Below are positions 291-14,497 of a stretch of 16,169 nt of DNA, in pieces. How positions within the stretch are numbered: the first letter of the stretch is position 1; each line of letters opens with the position of its first letter. Source of the stretch: Promethearchaeota archaeon (lineage in GTDB: Archaea > Asgardarchaeota > Thorarchaeia > Thorarchaeales > Thorarchaeaceae); contig JBHLPF010000034.1 of NCBI GenBank assembly GCA_048939765.1, positions 24,905 to 41,073 on the forward strand. Direction: 5' to 3'. Made by a program: the position numbers and the translations under genes. Under the pieces are notes generated by a model. It worked only from the letters and a program-made list of their open reading frames with translations, was not told the DNA's origin and did not search any database.

Positions 291-1061
291 GTGAGTTCTT
301 TGAAGCGTAGAATACAACCACATCTGAGAGTAGGCGAAGGCGACGTCGAAAAGGTAGTGCTGATCGCTGGGAATCCAGACAGAATCCCAGTGATGGCGTC
401 CAAGATGAAGGATCCGCAGGAAGTAGCACGGTATCGTGGATTCGTCACATATCGTGCATATACTCCAAAGGGAGTTGCAGTAACAATGGCTGGCACTGGA
501 ATAGGCACTCCCTCGACTCACATCTGTGTTGAAGAACTGTCGAGGCTTGGTCCTGAAGTTATCATAAGGATTGGCTCATGTGGTGGTATTGAACTCTCTG
601 TGAAGACTGGCGACGTAGTTGTACCAACGGGGGCAATTCGAGACGAGCGAACTGGCCTTAACTATGCACCTATGGAATACCCTGCTGTGGCATCTCCCAA
701 ATGGGCAACTGCATTGCATGACGAGATCTCAAAGCTATTGCCTGCTGACAGGGTGCATCAAGGCATCTGCTGGACTAGTGACGTCTACTATGTACGTCCT
801 GAAAACGATCCACTGGACATGTGGACTCGAGCTAGGGTCAAATGTGTTGAGATGGAGAGCTCATTCCTATTTGTATTTGCCACCACTCAAGGACTAGAAG
901 CAGCATCCATTCTAGCTGTTGACGGGAACTTGCATGGAGCCCAAAAGACCGAGCAGACTGATGAGTCTGAGAAATCAGGCGAGCAAAATCCTCTGCTGGT
1001 TGAAGCAGTAGAGAAAGAAATAGAGGCGACAGTCAAGGCTATAGATCGATTCTATGGTTGA
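291..1061 (+). CDS. udp: Nucleoside phosphorylase (uridine/purine nucleoside phosphorylase, PNP_UDP_1 family)
   Basis: Family motifs QPHL, GNPDR, GIGTPS..VEEL, IRIGSCG, AIRDE, YPAVA, TSDVYY, VEMES. Substrate specificity is not certain. Confidence 0.88.
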   Translation: MSSLKRRIQPHLRVGEGDVEKVVLIAGNPDRIPVMASKMKDPQEVARYRGFVTYRAYTPKGVAVTMAGTGIGTPSTHICVEELSRLGPEVIIRIGSCGGIELSVKTGDVVVPTGAIRDERTGLNYAPMEYPAVASPKWATALHDEISKLLPADRVHQGICWTSDVYYVRPENDPLDMWTRARVKCVEMESSFLFVFATTQGLEAASILAVDGNLHGAQKTEQTDESEKSGEQNPLLVEAVEKEIEATVKAIDRFYG

Positions 1062-1093
1062 GTATCTATCTCGTTCATCAAATCATGCTATTG

Positions 1094-1120
1094 CACACCT
1101 TTTTAGAGCATCAAATGATA
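1094..1120 (+). promoter_or_regulatory. Putative TATA-containing promoter of the methyltransferase pair
   Basis: CACACCTTTTTAGAG...AAATGATA. The T-rich box lies ~27-30 nt before ATG 1132 (leaderless spacing). A near-identical motif occurs at 5401-5423. Confidence 0.4.
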
Positions 1121-1131
1121 CCTCTCTCACC

Positions 1132-2226
1132 ATGCAGGAAGCTAGGGCGACAGATTGCAGACCTACTGGCATCAATCAGACCGTCACTCTAAGGAGCTTT
1201 GAGAGGGTCAGCAACCCGAAATCAATTCACGGTATATACCCCTACCGCGGCAAGATGTCTGCCATTGATGCAGCTCATGTCATAGGCCAACTCAGCTCTG
1301 CTGGCACTCTTCTGGATCCATTCTGCGGAACTGGAACGATTGTCTATGAGGCTCAGGCAAGAGGGATGGACGCTATTGGTGTGGACAACAACCCAGTTGC
1401 GTGCGAAATAGCTCGTGGCAAGACCGAACCGCTCGATGTAGATTCGACCATCTGTAATCTTGAATCCGCTCTAGAGGAAGCAAAGCGATGCAAGTCGCAC
1501 CTCTCAATGTCATCTGAGCCATCCCGCTATTTTCATCCAGAAACTGCAGATCAGATAATGCGGATGCTAGCTGCTTCTAGGAGTTTTTCTGCATACGAGA
1601 AGTCCGTCCTATACGGCTCTATCTGTGTCGCCGCACGTGCGTGCAATGGTTGGATTTGGACATCAACATCAATCGGGAAACTCAATCCTCCTCTTCGTCA
1701 AGTAGACTTCTACAAGATTGTTATGCGCAAAGCTCGCAAACACATCATCTATGTCAGAGGCCAGCCAAATGCGACAATCCATCAGTATGATACCCGTCGA
1801 GTCTATGACATCATTCCTGAGCACTCTATTGACATCGTCTATAGTAGCCCGCCATATTTCGATGCGCTTGATTACACTGGGTACTACACAAAGATAGTAA
1901 TGGAGGTCCTTGGAATGGACCGCGGGGGCATCCGTGACGGACTCATTCAAAGATACTCGACCTACACAGATGACATGAAACTGGCTCTGAAGGCGATCGA
2001 CAGAGTCGTCAGGGAGGACGCCATCATCATATTTGTTGTTGGTGACAGAATGGTTCATAGAGAACTCATTCGTGGTTCCGAGTTCTTTACAGAGATTGCA
2101 CCATGGAGCGAACCATACATCGTTGAAAGATCGTATACCAATACCCCGAGCAAAATGTGGGACAAGATCAACAAGACGCATCGAAAGGAGCAGGTCATTG
2201 TTTGGGACCTAGGTCGGAGCAGATGA
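1132..2226 (+). CDS. DNA amino-methyltransferase, alpha motif order, probably N4-cytosine
   Basis: IHGIYPYRGK, then motif I LLDPFCGTGT, then catalytic motif IV SSPPY. The ORF track starts at 1054; ATG 1132 is preferred because of the promoter-like motif upstream. Confidence 0.85.
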   Translation: MQEARATDCRPTGINQTVTLRSFERVSNPKSIHGIYPYRGKMSAIDAAHVIGQLSSAGTLLDPFCGTGTIVYEAQARGMDAIGVDNNPVACEIARGKTEPLDVDSTICNLESALEEAKRCKSHLSMSSEPSRYFHPETADQIMRMLAASRSFSAYEKSVLYGSICVAARACNGWIWTSTSIGKLNPPLRQVDFYKIVMRKARKHIIYVRGQPNATIHQYDTRRVYDIIPEHSIDIVYSSPPYFDALDYTGYYTKIVMEVLGMDRGGIRDGLIQRYSTYTDDMKLALKAIDRVVREDAIIIFVVGDRMVHRELIRGSEFFTEIAPWSEPYIVERSYTNTPSKMWDKINKTHRKEQVIVWDLGRSR

Positions 2227-2230
2227 CACT

Positions 2231-3073
2231 ATGACCGAACACCTGGTTGTCATTGGGGACAGTCGAGCAATGGACCATGTGAAGGATGCATCTGTTCATC
2301 TCGTTGTGACATCTCCGCCGTATTGGCGTCTAAAGGACTATGGCAATGGAGTGGAGATAGGTCAAGGTTCCACGTCCTATGAAGAATACCTGTCAGAGAT
2401 TTGTCTGGTGTTTAAGGAGTGTGTGAAGAAATTAGTACCCGATGGCAAGCTAATCATAAACATCATGCCATTATTCCTGACTGGGAAGAACTCCAAGTTC
2501 AAGCGACGCGTCACAAAGACGGTCATTACGGACTTGGAAGCCTTCATGGACTCACTAGGCAACATGTATTTTCACTCCCTCTTTGTATGGGACAAGCGCA
2601 AGGCGGCACGATTCAGTTCCTGGGGATCTTATCCCTATCCCCCAAACATTCTGGCATCCTATCCCTATGAGTGGATTGTAGTTTTCTCAAAGGAAGGCAG
2701 GCGACCTTCAGTGAGTAGTGAGGTCAAGGAATCATCAGTAATCAGTCATGATGAGTTTACGAATTGGGCTCAAAACTCAATCTGGGAATTTCAGCCTGCA
2801 TCAGCAAAACAGGAGGGCCACCCAGCTCCATTTCCAGAGGAACTACCTCATAGATGCATCCGTCTATACTCTTTTGTCGGAGACACAGTTCTTGATCCAT
2901 TTGCAGGGACTGGGACTACTATGGCTGTGGCGAGGAAACTGGGACGAAATTCCATCGGTTACGAAATCAACCCCGATTATGAGCCTCTTATACGTAGAAA
3001 ACTGGGAATTGGGGCAGATTGGAGCGATGATGCGGTCTTCGAAGTTGTGTGGCAGAACAGTAAGTCTAAATGA
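2231..3073 (+). CDS. DNA amino-methyltransferase, beta motif order (N6_N4_Mtase), probably N4-cytosine
   Basis: Motif IV VTSPPY near the N-terminus, HPAPFPEELP, motif I VLDPFAGTGTT, GYEINPDY. Starts 4 nt after the previous gene. Confidence 0.92.
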   Translation: MTEHLVVIGDSRAMDHVKDASVHLVVTSPPYWRLKDYGNGVEIGQGSTSYEEYLSEICLVFKECVKKLVPDGKLIINIMPLFLTGKNSKFKRRVTKTVITDLEAFMDSLGNMYFHSLFVWDKRKAARFSSWGSYPYPPNILASYPYEWIVVFSKEGRRPSVSSEVKESSVISHDEFTNWAQNSIWEFQPASAKQEGHPAPFPEELPHRCIRLYSFVGDTVLDPFAGTGTTMAVARKLGRNSIGYEINPDYEPLIRRKLGIGADWSDDAVFEVVWQNSKSK

Positions 3074-5461: not shown

Positions 5462-6352
5462 TTGAAGAAGACCATTATTTTCAGGCCTGCTGAAACTCAA
5501 ATTCCACCACTTACGTGCATGGCAGTGGACCCTCGAGGAAAGCGGATTGCTTGCGGCACAATGGACTCGCAGATCTTCATTATTGATTCAGTATCCAGAA
5601 CTCAGAAACGAGTACTGAAGGGACATGACGCTGCTGTTTCTGCTGTAGCTTTCATTGATGGAGGAAAGGGACTGGTATCAACTAGCTGGGACTGCACAAC
5701 ACGTAGATGGACCTCGACTGGACCTGCCAAAGATATACCCGTCCTTCGACACAATTCCGAGGTCAAGGCTCTAACTGTTGGATCTGAGAAAGCCAGAGGT
5801 GCTGCTGGCTCACGAGATGGAGAGGTCAAGGTGTTTTATACTAGCAGCATGAAGAACTACAGGAACATCCAGGCTCACAGAACCGACGTTTCAGGTCTTG
5901 TGTTCGCACGTGAAGAGTCTGTGCTAGTGACAGCTTCTTGGGACGGAGAATGTAATCTCTTTGACCTCAGCAGTTTTGATATTCTGGCCACCCTAACAAG
6001 ACAGAAAGAAAGAATCAGGTCAATAGCCGTGACAAATGATAGCTCGAAAGTCTTTCTCGGATTGCACAATGGCATCATTCTTTCAATAGACCCTGAGCGT
6101 CCAAAAGATGTCCTCGAAATGACGGGCCACTCGGACATCGTGACTTCTCTCGCAATTGACCCATCCAATACATACCTTGCATCTGGAAGTTGGGATCGGT
6201 CCGTTAAGGTTTGGTCAATCAAAAGACGAAAGGTGAAGAATCAGGATCGCTTGCTCACCGGAATCTCATCGATAGGATGGAATCCCAAAGGCTCAGGGTT
6301 CTACACAACTGACTACTCAGGCGCATTGAGATTTTGGGACTATGAGGCATAG
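5462..6352 (+). CDS. WD40-repeat beta-propeller protein (~7 blades)
   Basis: Repeating ~42 aa units: GHDAAVSAVAF..STSWD, AHRTDVSGL..TASWD, GHSDIVTSL..SGSWDRSVKVW, terminal LRFWD. Confidence 0.93.
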   Translation: MKKTIIFRPAETQIPPLTCMAVDPRGKRIACGTMDSQIFIIDSVSRTQKRVLKGHDAAVSAVAFIDGGKGLVSTSWDCTTRRWTSTGPAKDIPVLRHNSEVKALTVGSEKARGAAGSRDGEVKVFYTSSMKNYRNIQAHRTDVSGLVFAREESVLVTASWDGECNLFDLSSFDILATLTRQKERIRSIAVTNDSSKVFLGLHNGIILSIDPERPKDVLEMTGHSDIVTSLAIDPSNTYLASGSWDRSVKVWSIKRRKVKNQDRLLTGISSIGWNPKGSGFYTTDYSGALRFWDYEA

Positions 6353-6369
6353 GGGGTAAATCAAGGACT

Positions 6370-6912
6370 TCAGTTCTCAATTCGAATGTCGATGTCCATG
6401 TATCCTTCTTTGTTCCATGCAAATCTGACTCTTCCATATACTGTCTTTCCACGAGCAATTGACTCGAGATCCTCTACCAACCGATTCCGGCTTCTCTTGT
6501 CGAATGGTATTGGCACCTTCTCCCTTTCCATTGTTTGCAGATGCACTCCTTTCTCGTTGACTGACACAATTGGTTGAGAGAAAATCATCCTTCCTTCTCT
6601 GAAGACAGGAGCTTTATCACGCATACTCCTGACTGTCTGGGCCAATCTCCGATGCTCTCTGACTTCCCCCCATGCAGTCTTGACGACATCTCTCAAATAC
6701 TGAGATCTTCGGTCAAATTGGCTGGAGAGTTCTTCTTCGAGAATTTCGAAAGCTCTCCTACCTGATGAGATGTGATTCTTTAAGATGGCTCTAATGACAT
6801 AGTTGACTGCCTTCGAATACCTCTCGAATTCCAAGTCAATCTTATCTTGCTTCTCCCTACTCAATGTGACACTGGTGAGCTTCAGAATCATGGATATCGA
6901 GTCAGATGTCAT
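6370..6912 (-). CDS. TnpB/Cas12f-like N-terminal (WED+REC) protein lacking the RuvC/TNB half
   Basis: Pattern LKL..REKQ...ERYSKAVNYV...EEL...SQYL..VVKTA...PVFR..MIF..VSV..V.L.T...KVPIPF...YGRVR...EGY..DI.I resembles the TnpB N-terminal lobe. It ends before any GVDLG RuvC-I motif. Recognised by eye only. Confidence 0.6.
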   Translation of the reverse strand: MTSDSISMILKLTSVTLSREKQDKIDLEFERYSKAVNYVIRAILKNHISSGRRAFEILEEELSSQFDRRSQYLRDVVKTAWGEVREHRRLAQTVRSMRDKAPVFREGRMIFSQPIVSVNEKGVHLQTMEREKVPIPFDKRSRNRLVEDLESIARGKTVYGRVRFAWNKEGYMDIDIRIEN

Positions 6913-6968
6913 TTTGACACGAATTGGATGAACTGTTTCTCACCTAATCAATCTAACCTGAAATGGTC

Positions 6969-7991
6969 TTACAGTCGTTGGGCTATGAACTGTGCCTCTC
7001 CGATGCTCCTTTGAACTCCCTTCATTGTGAACTCGAATGCACCGTAGCGTACAAGGATGTTCTCATAGAAGACTGGTTCGTTCTCCTTGAGATCTTGAAC
7101 AAAGCTCGTCTGGTCAACCTCAAACTTGCCTGCAAGCGCCATTAATGCTCGTCCAATGCTATCCACGGCTCTACGCATCTCAAGTACGGCGAGTTCGTAG
7201 TCCCCGGCCAGTGTGCAATTCATTGCACCATGATACTCCCGTTGAGCCCTTGTTATCAGGTCTGTTGCATACTCATCGACAGTTCCCTCACCAAAGCGTC
7301 CCTCTGCTATTGCAATCCATTCCTCAAGCTCTCCTAGGGTTTCCATGAGATCATCCTCTTCCATACCCTTCAGCTTGAAGGTCCGGAGAAAGAGTGGATA
7401 TGCCAGTGGGTCCAAGAGTCGTATCTCTGTGAGAACCTCTGAAGGCTTCATTATTGAGAAGTAGTTGTTCTTCATCACAATGACCCTGCCAAGGTCGAAG
7501 AGTGCACCACGTAGCTCATGGATTGCACTGATTGTATCTTCCGCCTCTGCTGATTTTGTAGCATTGTTCAATGACAGCATAGCCCGTTGCTTCATATTGT
7601 CAATTGCATCTTCAGACCACACGAAGTTCGCCGCTGTCTTCTGCCACTTCTTCAGCATCCCTTTCTTATCATGAACTACCTTGGCATTTCTCAACATAGA
7701 AACAATCTGCGCCACATGCAACGCATCACTTGTCTTCCCTTCAAGTACTTCTTCGATTCTCGTGGGAGTGATGAACGTCATATCCACACGTATGCCTTTG
7801 TGCTCAGCAAGTAGCGGCGCTGGAGACTCCGCTTCATCCCAGATTACTCCGATATTCAGATCTGAGTTGGTGGTTATTGTACCGCGTGCAAAGGAACCAT
7901 AGACAAAGATTCCTTTTACACTGTCGTGTTTCTTCCACTCATCCACTGTGTCGTTCAGTGCTGTATTGAACTTCTTGTGTAGGTCGAACAC
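6969..7991 (-). CDS. Pol-beta-superfamily (MNT/KNTase-like) nucleotidyltransferase domain fused to two HEPN-like helical bundles
   Basis: VYGSFARG...SDLNI, IRVDM. The C-terminal half has two similar helical units (LNNATKSAEAEDTISAIHELRGAL and YHGAMNCTLAGDYELAVLEMRRAV). SD-like GAGGAGGAGAGG precedes the GTG. Confidence 0.75.
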   Translation of the reverse strand: MFDLHKKFNTALNDTVDEWKKHDSVKGIFVYGSFARGTITTNSDLNIGVIWDEAESPAPLLAEHKGIRVDMTFITPTRIEEVLEGKTSDALHVAQIVSMLRNAKVVHDKKGMLKKWQKTAANFVWSEDAIDNMKQRAMLSLNNATKSAEAEDTISAIHELRGALFDLGRVIVMKNNYFSIMKPSEVLTEIRLLDPLAYPLFLRTFKLKGMEEDDLMETLGELEEWIAIAEGRFGEGTVDEYATDLITRAQREYHGAMNCTLAGDYELAVLEMRRAVDSIGRALMALAGKFEVDQTSFVQDLKENEPVFYENILVRYGAFEFTMKGVQRSIGEAQFIAQRL

Positions 7992-8102
7992 GACCTCTCC
8001 TCCTCGCTGTGTATGCTGTTTCGACTTGGGTCAGTATTTGAAAATGCTTGTCAATAAAGCTATCTAGTGGAAGTATTCGCCCGTGGGAAATAATAGGAAG
8101 GG

Positions 8103-8837
8103 ATGCGACCAGTGAAATCGGAGTTGCACTCAGTGACCCGATTAGATGGACGTGCAAATGACGCTCTCAGGCCCGTGGAGATTGTACGTGACTTTCTCAA
8201 ATATCCTGAGGGTTCTGTACTGATAAGCACTGGAGAAACCAGAGTGATATGCACTGCCACTGTGGAAGAAGGCGTTCCAGGTTGGCTCAATCATCAAGGG
8301 CAGGGGTGGGTAACAGCAGAATATGCGATGCTCCCAAGAGCCACAGAAGATCGTACCAATAGAAATAGGATGAGCGGTCGAGGCGCTGAGATTCAGCGAC
8401 TCATTGGTCGGTCTCTGCGTAGTGCTATAGACATGAAAAGATTAGGCGAGAACACCATTAGGATAGATTGTGATGTGATTCAAGCAGATGGAGGCACAAG
8501 AACCTCTTCGATAACCGGAGCATATGTGGCTCTCTGCGATGCCCTTCAGTATATGATTGATATGGACATGATCCAAGAAGCTCCAATCCTTGGCCATGTT
8601 GCTGCAGTGAGTGTGGGCATTGTGAAGGGTGAACTGCTTCTCGACCTCTGCTATGAGGAAGATGCCCACGCAGATGTTGACATGAACATAGTCATGCGCG
8701 ACGATGAGTTCGTTGAGGTACAGGGGACAGGTGAGAGTGCGACTTTTGCCCGAGGAGACCTAAACAGATTGCTTGACCTTGCATCCCAGGGCATTCGAGA
8801 ACTGATAGAGTATCAGAAGAACGCGCTCTCTGGATAG
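8103..8837 (+). CDS. rph: Ribonuclease PH (bacterial type)
   Basis: RLDGR...LRP, EGSVL...[68 protein letters not shown]. The true start may be GTG 8133. Confidence 0.93.
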
Positions 8838-11398: not shown

Positions 11399-14300
11399 GA
11401 CTACAATATGCTGTACGGTTGCTGGTGGATGACTTGGTTGGCTAGCCGATGAAGGGCGTCACGAGCTGCGAAACGCCTGGGGTAGGCGCATGAAGCCTTT
11501 GATCCCAGGATCCCCGAATTGGACTTCCTGGCTGGGGCTAATACCCCCTGTCATTCCAGTGTCACAACTGGAAGGGGAACGCTCGGAACTGAAGCATCTT
11601 AGTACGGGCAGGAAAAGAAAACAATAGTGATCTCCTTAGTAACAGCGAGCGAAAGGGAGAAAGGCCAAACCGAATCCTCACGCGAAGAGTGTGAGGGGAT
11701 GTGGTGTGTGGGCTCTGAACTTATTGCCGACGTGTCCAAGCTGAAGTCGTCTGGAACGATGCGACATAGAGGGTGATATCCCCGTAGGCGTAAACCACGG
11801 GCATGTTTAGAGATCCTGAGTAGCGCGGGTTGGTTTTCTCGCGTGAAAGTCGCAGGTGCAATCTGCGAAGCCTAAATACTCAGCCAAACCGATAGTAAAC
11901 TATGTAGCGCGAGCGAAAGTTGAAAAGTGCCGCGGAAGCGGGGTGAAAAGCACCTGAAACCAGCAATCTATACAAAGGATGCCGATTAAAAGGGTAGATA
12001 CTCGAGGAACGAAACAGGAGCAATCCTGCAGTAGGACTCGAGTGGACCGCATCGGCGTCATCCGTCTTGAAACACGGGCCAGGGAGTTCATGGGCGTGGC
12101 GAGGATAAGGCATTAAGCCGTAAACGAAGCGAAAGCGACAAGCCCGCAGCTGCTTGCAGTGAGGGGCGACGTGTGATAAGTGCGTGAAGTCACTCCCGTG
12201 ACACGAGAAACCAGTCGATCTTGGCGTGGGCAGGGTGAAGCCGGGCGAAAGCTCGGTGGAGGCCCGAAAGGGTTCTGACGTGCAACTCGCTCCGTTGACC
12301 TGCGCGAAGGGGTAAAAGGCTTATCTAGACTGGTGATTGCTCGTTCTCCGCGAAGTTGGTCGCAGCCAAGCCCTGCTTGAGGTATCATGTGGTGTAGAGC
12401 ACTTTCGGATGTGCCCGGGGGTCGACAAGACCTTCACCATCCTGAAAACTCCGAAGCTGCATGAACTGTAGACGGCAGGAGACGGGTGCCCGGGGTAAGC
12501 CCGGCAGGCCGAGATGGGGAGAACCGAGAGAATGGTTAAGGTCCCTAAGTACCAGATAAGTGCGGTGAAGAAGGGCGTCGAGAGCCCAAGACAGTCTGGG
12601 GGTGAGCTTAGAAGCAGCTATCCCCGAACGAAAGCGTAACAGCTCACAGACCGAGGCTCTCGGCCTTGAAAATGGACGGGGCTAAATCTGGTTACCGAGA
12701 CCATTCAGCACATGGGTAATTCCGTGTGATCTGGTAGCGGAGCGATCCGGTCGGGTAGAAGTGGGGCTGTGAGGTCCCGTGGACCGTCCGGATTTGATGA
12801 TCCTGGCAGTAGTAACAGCAAAGCATGGTGAGAATCCATGTCACCGAAAGGGAAAGGGTTCTTCGGCAATGCGTCGTCAGCCGAAGCTTAGTCGATCCTA
12901 AGTGGCGTCGTAATTCGAGCGTCACGAAAGGGAATCAGGTTAATATTCCTGAACCTCGGAAGTACGATTCGCGGCAACGCAAAGCCGGACTTGTGACTCA
13001 TCTGGACAAGCCGAGCGCAGCTCTCGCTGCGCTTAACACTATAAGGGTGCCGAGTACCGTAATGGTGAGAAGCAGTCGAAAGGTGGAATAGCGAGTGGTC
13101 GGACACTCGTTCGGCTCATTCCTGGTGACCATGAAAAGCGAGTCCGGAAGGATCTTCCGAGTCCGTACCCAGAACTGACACAGGTTCCCTGGCTGAGAAG
13201 GCCAAGGTGTATCGGAGTCACCCCTCCTGAGGGAAATCGGCCAATTAGCAGCGTAACTTCGGGATATGCTGTGCCTGGGTTAGTGCAAGCTTTCCCAGGT
13301 CTTAGTAACTAAGGGGTCCCAACTGTTTAATACAAACATAGCTGACTGCGAGCGCGAAAGCGTTAGTACAGTCAGTGAATCCTGGTCTGTGCCTGTCAGT
13401 CAAAGCTCAGGAAGGGGTCTAAGCTCAGGTTAACGCCGGGACTAACTATGAGTCTCTTAAGGTAGCCAAATGCCTTGTCGGTTAAATGCCGACGTGCATG
13501 AAGGGAGCAATGAGGTCCCCACTGTCCCCAGGAGGGCTCCGGTGAACCTACACCGTACCGAACAGTGTACGTAGCGCCAATGGGAAGAGAAGTCCCTGCG
13601 GAGGTTTACTACGCAGTCTGTCATTGCCATCCCGGGCATCGTGCAGAGCATAGTCAGGAGCGTTGAACCATTCTCTCTGGGGAGTGGGAATGCAATCGTG
13701 TAATACTGACCATGTTGTCTGAGATGGCTAACCTAAACCAAGCGAGTCTAGGGACACTGGCAGATAGGCAGTTGGGCTGGGGCGGCACACGGCTGACAAG
13801 AGATCAGCCGTGACCAATACTGAGCTCAGAGGCGACGGAAACGTCTCGTTGAGATTAAGGGCAGAAGCTCGGTTGACAGGATCCCGCACAATGACGGATC
13901 CTGGGTGGAAACACTGGCCTAGCGAACCACTTCATAGCTAATTGCATGCGGAAGTGATGACAAAAAACTTACCCCAGGGGTAACAGAGTTGTCGCGTGCA
14001 AGAGTTCATATCGACCACGCGGCTTGCTTCCTCGATGTCGGCTCTTGGTATCCTGGCGTTGCATAATGCGCCAAGGGTGCGGGTGCTCACCGATTAAAAC
14101 CGAACGTGAGCTGGGTTTAGACCGTTGCGAGACAGGTTGGTTTCTATCTATTGGCGCTGTTGGATGTCTGATGGCAAGGGGAAGCCGGTACGAGAGGAAC
14201 GCTTCGCCGCGACCTATGGTGTACCAATTGTCTGAGAAGGCACTGTTGGGTAGCTAAGTCGTAACGAATAAACGCTGAATGCATCTAAGCGTGAAGTCAG

Positions 14301-14483
14301 ACCAGAAAATAGACATCCACTTGCTGAACGTCAACACCGAAGTTGGCACGGGACTGGTGACAGTAACGTGTAGTTCAGGAACGAGGGCTCTGGTAGAAGA
14401 CCAGGTAAATAGGGCAGGGATGTAAGTACCAAGGTTCGCCGAGGTATTCAGTCTACTGCTACTAATGCCCGAGGCGTGTAGTC
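11399..14483 (+). rRNA. rrl: 23S ribosomal RNA (archaeal), ends approximate
   Basis: GAACTGAAGCATCTTAGTA, CCGTCTTGAAACACGG, TTAGAAGCAGC, CTCTTAAGGTAGCCAAATGCC, P-loop GGGGCGGC, CTCGATGTCGG, GAGCTGGGTTTAGACCG, SRL GTACGAGAGGAAC. Terminal helix GACTACA (11399) / TGTAGTC (14477). Confidence 0.98.
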
Positions 14484-14497
14484 AGAAACGGTGGCTC

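Follow-up and report, generated by a model that had tools for sequence, protein, structure and literature searches.

Introduction

The domesticated descendants of TnpB and Cas12 that have been described (Cas12k, Cas12m, TldR, dCas12f-sigmaE and Fanzor) all keep a bilobed body and an RNA guide. Here we report on a protein of 180 amino acids that corresponds to a single lobe of this body. It is encoded by an open reading frame (ORF) at positions 6370-6912, minus strand, of a 16,169-nt stretch of DNA (the window) from a Promethearchaeota archaeon of the GTDB family Thorarchaeaceae (assembly GCA_048939765.1, contig JBHLPF010000034.1, positions 24,905 to 41,073 of the forward strand), and we label this REC-lobe-only protein X180. 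Taken as a whole, our observations are best explained if X180 is the REC lobe of a TnpB/Cas12f-type RNA-guided nuclease that has been kept as a domesticated gene, an explanation that we regard as probable on balance and well short of certain. If so, the recognition lobe alone was severed at a domain boundary and has persisted over a very long period as a protein of use to the cell.

X180 shares with TnpB (ISDra2; PDB 8h1j, 8exa) and Cas12f (AsCas12f, PDB 8dzj) a WED OB-barrel that is split by the REC bundle, as well as a weak N-terminal OrfB motif. Unlike these proteins it lacks RuvC, the TNB zinc ribbon and a C-terminal domain, has no adjacent omegaRNA, insertion sequence (IS) ends or tnpA, and is single-copy, immobile and below every sequence-family threshold. 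It resembles TldR and the flagellin-associated truncated TnpBs (PMC10705468, PMC10691335) in that cleavage is lost and that the gene is immobile and fixed beside host genes. However, these proteins are bacterial, whereas X180 comes from an Asgard archaeon, and they retain the RuvC fold and a long guide RNA in the 3' untranslated region, whereas X180 is without NUC lobe and guide region. In both groups the catalytic residues of the RuvC fold are replaced and no more than RuvC-III is missing; the flagellin-associated TnpBs lose only RuvC-III (PMC10691335).

The best Foldseek match of X180 (E 9e-7), and its second-best match in VIA-align (Z 14.1), is the dCas12f of dCas12f-sigmaE (PDB 9n9c; PMC13472631), an exapted nuclease-dead Cas12f homologue whose partner protein is encoded adjacent to it. 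dCas12f is truncated only in part at its C-terminus; its fold remains Cas12f-like, its guide derives from CRISPR, and its partner is a sigma factor (PMC13472631). X180 has neither that fold nor the guide nor the sigma partner, and its neighbour is instead a protein with a nucleotidyltransferase (NTase) core and a HEPN-like domain. The inactive RuvC fold that is retained in TldR, dCas12f, Cas12k and Cas12m is gone from X180. In the literature we found no paper on a conserved NUC-lobe-less TnpB derivative, nor on TnpB in Thorarchaeota.

Fold of X180

An earlier reading of the window, made from the letters alone (the sequence-only reading), had described an intact frame of 180 codons with a WED-REC-WED pattern that stops before RuvC-I, and our analysis agrees with it on each of these points. 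The frame is unbroken from its ATG start through 180 codons to a TGA stop. From an alignment of 32 sequences AlphaFold2 produced a confident model (pLDDT 90.5, pTM 0.84), which consists of a strand (residues 7-14), three long helices (19-46, 51-65 and 70-93) and a beta-barrel with a short helix (108-179). This is the layout of a WED OB-barrel whose first strand is followed by the inserted REC helical domain. The gene and its parts are as follows.

6370-6912, minus strand: X180 gene, stop codon included (ORF call, AlphaFold2 model, fold matches, orthologues and selection)
6868-6912, minus strand: residues 1-15, first WED strand (beta1, residues 7-14; secondary structure of the model)
6613-6867, minus strand: residues 16-100, REC helical insertion including the N-terminal OrfB-like motif (model; weak NCBIfam matches)
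6373-6612, minus strand: residues 101-180, remaining WED beta-barrel, ending on the last WED strand (model; alignment)

The check that had been proposed for this fold, a structure prediction followed by a Foldseek search, gave a match to the TnpB/Cas12f WED-REC lobe that is strong and exclusive. All 35 matches in PDB at E<=0.001 are Cas12f, TnpB, Cas12k, Cas12g or Cas-lambda, with a best TM-score of 0.69 normalised to the query. In a scan of 48,161 chains with VIA-align, which is independent of Foldseek, the top 33 are likewise all Cas12, TnpB, Fanzor or their relatives (Z 5.2-14.5), and the next unrelated fold follows at Z 4.9. AsCas12f residues 0-209 are matched at Z 14.5 over 167 aligned residues with a root-mean-square deviation of 3.3, and residues 4-180 of X180 align to residues 1-175 of ISDra2 TnpB at Z 11.8. 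In the latter protein WED comprises residues 1-12 and 117-176 and REC residues 13-116, and RuvC begins at residue 185 (PMC10097598). X180 is therefore a complete REC lobe that ends on the last WED strand. The RNase H-fold RuvC domain with its D-E-D triad is not present, the protein ending at the WED boundary, and neither is a TNB/zinc-ribbon domain found in the ORF.

Searches by sequence gave a different picture. A Pfam scan assigned X180 to no family and returned nothing relevant in all 32 aligned relatives, searches of PDB sequences with phmmer and with profiles gave chance matches only (E>0.4), and hhalign of the X180 family profile against the full-length TnpB of the same genome returned a probability of 0.2%. 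Two NCBIfam models match residues 16-50 below threshold, namely TIGR01765 (OrfB N-terminal; E 0.009, 16 bits against a cut-off of 47) and Cas12f2 (E 0.022, 13.6 bits against a cut-off of 450), and each of them matches this N-terminal motif in 8 of the 32 family members, with a best E of 7.6e-5.

The family alignment contains 28 invariant columns, among them clusters of lysine and arginine in WED. In the first WED segment K11, S14 and V15 are invariant, and a basic patch of the WED barrel is formed by the invariant residues P136, D138, K139, S141, R142, N143, R161 and R163. S112 and P114 are invariant too, as are Y72, D75, T79, A80, E83 and H87 in helix 3. The protein is basic (median isoelectric point 9.99).

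Distribution, synteny and selection

A word-indexed search recovered 137 relatives of X180 with lengths of 173-203 amino acids and identities of 47-89%, from metagenome-assembled genomes that are mostly labelled Candidatus Thorarchaeota at NCBI. We profiled 400 genomes of the phylum, 85 of them other members of the window's own GTDB family (f1) and 315 from 32 other families. The X180 profile matched 79 of the 85 in-family genomes, in all 16 genera and with one gene each, and none of the 315 genomes from the other Asgard families, the sister family included. The six in-family genomes without a match are 65-88% complete. In its own genome X180 is single-copy, and no match in the family contains an internal stop. 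A recent strain-specific truncation, the alternative against which the sequence-only reading had to be tested, is not what we see, since the nearest homologues are of the same length and family-wide and none of them is a full-length TnpB.

An exhaustive phmmer search over 1.84 billion cluster representatives found 19 X180 clusters, of which one is longer (377 amino acids). This relative, P0136 (L062:5001-6134), is the most divergent orthologue, and its C-terminal extension consists of about three helical repeats of 40 residues (RPWE...I.N motif) with no Pfam match and no RuvC signature. All other relatives have 173-257 amino acids, and a profile search among proteins of 357-2000 amino acids found no X180 relative, which is weak evidence. 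The upper end of this range is occupied by five genera (g3, g4, g7, g9 and g10), whose X180 has ~230-257 amino acids with an insertion of ~50 residues in REC. Examples are L046:5995-6708 and P0122, in which the insertion lies between helices 2 and 3; it is reminiscent of the REC expansion in Cas12 evolution. One genome (G328, contigs C82 and C67) holds two X180 genes, a short and a long form, and two NTase genes on different contigs. As its contamination is given as 6%, the bin is probably mixed and the genes are probably not duplicated.

The gene order M28 > WD40 > < X180 < NTase, RNase PH > is identical in 20 loci from 12 genera. In the two most divergent orthologues (33-38% identity; three loci) the order is RNase PH, NTase > X180 < M28, without WD40. 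The immediate neighbours in the window are the following.

5462-6352, plus strand: convergent WD40-repeat gene, part of the gene context and missing from the loci of the most divergent orthologues
6353-6369, no strand: gap of 17 nt between the X180 stop and the convergent WD40 stop (ORF coordinates)
6969-7991, minus strand: gene for a 340-residue protein with NTase, HEPN-like helical domain and second helical bundle (Pfam Polbeta/NTP_transf_2; MntA; AlphaFold2 model and structure matches)
8103-8837, plus strand: RNase PH gene, divergent from the NTase gene (conserved context)

The ratio of nonsynonymous to synonymous substitution rates (dN/dS), estimated by the pairwise Nei-Gojobori method for pairs with dS between 0.05 and 1.5, has a median of 0.14 for X180 and ranges from 0.06 to 0.30 (37 pairs). 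In the maximum-likelihood tree all genera represented by at least two rows are monophyletic, and 12 changes of genus label are found, which is the minimum possible, as compared with a mean of 26.9 with shuffled labels. This pattern fits vertical descent. Same-length orthologues with conserved synteny and a dN/dS below one, for which a search of Asgard genomes had been recommended, therefore exist: 137 relatives and 20 syntenic loci were found, and dN/dS is ~0.14. Chance cannot account for so many homologues of equal length together with this dN/dS. X180 thus bears the marks of exaptation, in that it is immobilised, in conserved synteny with host genes and under purifying selection. That its truncation at a domain boundary reflects domestication, as had been suggested, accords with a gene that is single-copy, syntenic and selected in this way across the whole family.

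The 3' end and mobility

In the gap of 17 nt, which ends at the convergent WD40 gene, neither a 3' omegaRNA nor a remnant of RuvC can be accommodated. Across the family the gap between X180 and WD40 measures 0-61 nt or is replaced by an overlap of up to 26 nt; one locus has a gap of 185 nt, and the WD40 match there is only partial. Among the RNA families of Rfam, none other than 23S was found in the window. The Y1 transposase (PF01797) was found nowhere in this assembly, which is 88.5% complete, and no IS-like terminal repeats flank X180. The signs of a mobile element (multiple or variable copies, tnpA, terminal hairpins) are absent; X180 has one copy in one conserved locus. On these matters the sequence-only reading holds throughout: it had seen no RuvC remnant after the stop, where the DNA indeed belongs to the WD40 gene, no space for a free-standing 3' omegaRNA, a situation shared by most of the family with its short or negative gaps, and neither a tnpA nor obvious IS ends.

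Full-length TnpB has a patchy distribution across these genomes. Matches to bona fide TnpB (NF040570) number 0 to 19 or more per family genome, many of them fragments or with in-frame stops, and several X180-bearing genomes that are at least 91% complete have no TnpB match. TnpB behaves as a mobile element in these genomes, in contrast to X180. The genome of the window has one full-length intact TnpB, at C12:28632-29711 (L002), and X180 lies on another contig (C41). No other ORF with RuvC or TNB was found in this genome, where PF01385 and PF07282 (above cut-off) match only on C12.

The NTase gene upstream of X180

The NTase gene lies directly upstream of X180 and in the same direction in all loci examined. 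Neither this constant neighbour nor the conserved element described below figured in the sequence-only reading. In the AlphaFold2 model of the NTase product (pLDDT 89.6) residues 1-120 form an NTase core, which is accompanied by a HEPN-like domain of four helices and another helical bundle, and the best structure matches of the model are the NTase-like 3c18 (Z 16.0), ANT(4') (Z 14.4) and the HEPN protein AF_0298 (Z 14.3). It is like kanamycin nucleotidyltransferase (KNTase) and the MNT-HEPN NTases in having an NTase core, in most orthologues with the G-S...D-x-D...D signature, followed by a HEPN-like four-helix domain. It is unlike them in its extra C-terminal helical bundle, in the lack of a conserved Rx4-6H and in that its gene is conserved on the chromosome and is neither a toxin-antitoxin nor a resistance gene.

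We scored the signature hG[GS]...[DE]h[DE]...[DE] among 43 distinct orthologues and found it in full (GS-D-D-D) in 33. Residue 46, the second catalytic aspartate of D-x-D, is asparagine in the window's protein and in four more distinct orthologues (GSDND); the other departures are three orthologues with GSDNN and two without the first aspartate. To judge from these replacements, catalysis may have been lost repeatedly. The Rx4-6H RNase motif of HEPN proteins is not conserved in a sample of 22 sequences (R248 in 3/22, H254 in 6/22). This genome has RAQREYH at the corresponding site, and only R251 is conserved among the 22.

Homologues of the NTase occur at 31% identity in the sister family and at 20-28% in another Asgard family. 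Where a diverged X180 was sought downstream of the sister-family orthologue, a membrane ORF of 102 residues and then a profilin gene were found instead. In the sister-family genome concerned (G311) the small membrane ORF occupies the place of X180, and the profilin-domain gene (L052:4111-4497, plus strand; PF00235, E 1.4e-5) is the second gene downstream of the NTase orthologue. In a genome of the other Asgard family (G075) a split TnpB (L056:3179-4459, minus strand), made up of a 176-residue HTH_OrfB_IS605 ORF and a 203-residue TNB ORF, lies directly downstream of the distant NTase homologue. It was present in 1 of the 4 genomes examined of that family, and an IS probably inserted there by chance; even so, it illustrates how an arrangement like that of X180 could have come about.

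A conserved element upstream of X180

The spacer between NTase and X180 has 56 nt in this genome and 37-155 nt in the family, and it is unconserved outside one sharply bounded element.

6943-6958, minus strand: element of 16 nt, GGtTAgATTGATTAGG, 31 nt before the X180 ATG; probable own promoter of X180 (BRE/TATA position)

The element is found in 50 of 50 loci, and in 49 of them the distance from its end to the called start is 22-35 nt. In the remaining locus (L038) it ends 61 nt before the called start, which is probably miscalled. The positions that flank it carry almost no information. In the genome there is one exact copy, and with up to two mismatches there are 2 sites where 2.1 are expected; a 9-mer of the element occurs 26 times against 34 expected. 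As these counts are at chance level, the element is neither a general promoter word nor a regulon motif. Of two intergenic 9-mer sites (C25 and C77), the one inspected, on contig C25, showed nothing notable, and a crude analysis of k-mer enrichment upstream of ORFs for a general promoter consensus was uninformative.

The element sits where the transcription factor B recognition element (BRE) and TATA box of an archaeal leaderless or short-leader mRNA are placed. Because of this position, because a divergent orthologue has a canonical TTTATAG in the same place, and because the promoter regions of the neighbouring RNase PH and NTase genes are conserved to a similar degree (for example AGATAGCTTTATTGA), we read it as the probable promoter of X180 itself, which could possibly double as an operator. 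The TTGAT core of the element is identical to the target-adjacent motif (TAM) of ISDra2 (PMC10097598), which is a lead and not evidence. We had considered this core as a relic TAM or operator, and downgraded the idea in view of the similarly conserved neighbouring promoters and the plain TATA box of the divergent orthologue.

The divergent spacer between RNase PH and NTase (7992-8102) holds two elements that are conserved across genera, AGATAGCTTTATTGA(C) toward NTase at 8050-8067 (minus strand) and CTATTAAT toward RNase PH. They look like the two core promoters and give a local picture of the promoter shape in this family.

Interpretation

We propose that the whole nuclease lobe (RuvC and TNB) and the 3' omegaRNA region were removed from a TnpB/Cas12f-type ancestor. 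The loss would be ancient, older than the diversification of the archaeal family to which this genome belongs (the members labelled Candidatus Thorarchaeota). Since then X180 has stayed on the chromosome as one immobile copy, passed on vertically and under purifying selection. With its conserved basic WED face and the cleft between WED and REC it would still bind nucleic acid, and it would be unable to cut. The mechanism that we prefer, as a tentative first choice among several, is that X180 acts without a guide as the nucleic-acid-binding partner of the NTase-HEPN-like protein, bringing or holding its DNA or RNA substrate.

These proposals should be interpreted with some caution, since several results weigh against them. 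No sequence search, be it with Pfam, PDB profiles or hhalign, reaches any TnpB at family thresholds, and the homology between X180 and TnpB consequently rests on structure together with the weak motif matches. The conserved residues of X180 can be placed on the TAM cleft of TnpB only approximately. As regards the partnership, the asparagine in place of the second catalytic aspartate in the genus of this genome weakens the case for an enzymatic one here. The NTase also occurs where X180 is missing, namely in the sister family and, as a distant homologue, in one more Asgard family; it is therefore not dependent on X180, and its gene is the older of the two. Moreover, the NTase gene and X180 each have their own promoter-like element and thus need not form one operon. 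Finally, the function that we assign to X180, in its binding, partner and substrate alike, is an inference from what we observed of the fold and its boundary, the distribution, synteny and selection of the gene, the basic charge of the protein and the gene-specific upstream element.

After the partnership with the NTase-HEPN-like protein, the next most likely mechanism is a free-standing, guide-independent DNA-binding regulator, a possibility that we doubt. Here the WED/REC cleft would read a fixed motif and X180 would act as a transcription factor, perhaps for autoregulation at the ATTGATTAG upstream element. TnpB binds its TAM duplex through WED and REC alone (PMC10097598), X180 is basic, and the element stands upstream of it in every one of the 50 loci with a core that equals the ISDra2 TAM. 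However, TTGAT as a 5-mer occurs 12,998 times in the genome, and the uniqueness of the full element, with its 9-mer at chance level, means that no regulon is visible; besides, the position of the element fits an ordinary BRE/TATA promoter, as the similar conservation of the neighbouring promoters and the TTTATAG of the divergent orthologue also suggest. A more far-reaching form of the partnership, which we hold to be unlikely, would make the REC lobe and the NTase-HEPN-like protein a new two-protein machine for nucleic-acid targeting, in which the NTase module replaces RuvC/TNB in trans. The choice of target, DNA or RNA, would fall to WED-REC, perhaps still helped by a guide encoded in trans, and the modification or sensing of that target would fall to the partner; if true, an archaeal lineage related to eukaryotes would have a native Cas12-derived system whose effector is not a nuclease. 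Distinctly unlikely in our judgement is an X180 that is still RNA-guided, holding a trans-encoded guide RNA and targeting complementary DNA or RNA without cutting. The exapted relatives TldR, dCas12f-sigmaE, Cas12k and Cas12m all stayed RNA-guided, and in TnpB WED takes part in binding the omegaRNA, while the heteroduplex channel is lined by REC (PMC10097598). Yet the TnpB scaffold is held by WED and RuvC, and the heteroduplex by REC and RuvC (PMC10097598), and both RuvC surfaces are lost; since much of the omegaRNA scaffold of TnpB is held by RuvC, this loss makes trans-guided binding less likely than guide-independent binding. Nor does any adjacent RNA gene fit into the 17 nt downstream or into the 56 nt upstream, which are mostly promoter-like element. 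Rfam shows only 23S in the window, and no candidate guide was found, although without a dedicated genome-wide search.

Other explanations concern what X180 is and not what it does. It could be a look-alike, either a convergent OB-barrel with a helical bundle or a free-standing module that is ancestral and predates TnpB, and the identity of only 5-15% to Cas12f/TnpB structures, with no family-level sequence match, would agree with that. We consider it very unlikely, given that the structural match spans 157-174 of the 180 residues with the unusual topology of REC after WED strand 1, that the best 33 of the 48,161 chains all belong to this superfamily and unrelated folds begin only at Z 4.9, and that weak OrfB-N and Cas12f2 matches recur at the homologous N-terminal motif; the confinement of X180 to one family of one phylum, when TnpB is ubiquitous, makes an ancestral module unlikely as well. 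X180 might also be a helper protomer for full-length TnpB or Cas12f, comparable to the second Cas12f subunit, which gives mainly WED-REC. Several of the best chains are indeed second Cas12f protomers resolved over ~175-200 residues (TM-score 0.59-0.67, normalised to the target), and the genome of the window has its one full-length TnpB. The lack of TnpB in several X180-bearing family genomes of at least 91% completeness, the varying TnpB copy number (0 to 19 or more) beside a single X180, and the absence of linkage in this genome (C41 versus C12) nevertheless render a helper role highly improbable. A decaying IS fragment or annotation artefact, finally, can be practically discounted. It is suggested by some sources, which name X180 relatives 'predicted transposase', and by the look-alikes of a language-model search, which include clusters named 'Transposase (Fragment)'; the dN/dS of 0.06-0.30, the 28 invariant columns, the one locus shared by at least 16 genera and the lack of internal stops refute it by conservation.

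The same language-model search also points to short families of archaea and bacteria that carry the names 'transposase fragment', MJ0013, Aq_aa04 and SSO2105_N, the last three being Pfam 38.1 families. They are unconfirmed leads and may be pseudogene fragments; we found no paper that mentions MJ0013. They touch on the question whether similar exaptations are hidden among other short 'transposase fragment' families. A further question raised by X180 is whether the WED-REC lobe alone serves in the TAM-like reading of DNA, in RNA binding or in protein recruitment. With its 180 residues X180 would be a naturally minimised and stable Cas12-type scaffold for nucleic-acid binding, and its family-wide occurrence beside the NTase-HEPN-like gene and RNase PH offers a testable entry into the lineage-specific nucleic-acid biology of Asgard archaea.

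Other features of the window

Further neighbours in the window are genes for an M28 peptidase, an FAD oxidoreductase, two DNA methyltransferases and a purine/uridine phosphorylase. The two methyltransferase genes (N6_N4_Mtase) are adjacent (1054-3073, plus strand); only some orthologous loci have them, and in others they are replaced or absent. A complete archaeal 23S rRNA gene lies at 11401-14484, plus strand (Rfam RF02540, 2505 bits). With flanks of about 6 kb fetched, the 23S gene was found beyond RNase PH in 14 of 20 orthologous loci, and from this recurrence it follows that the whole region is a stable chromosomal neighbourhood.

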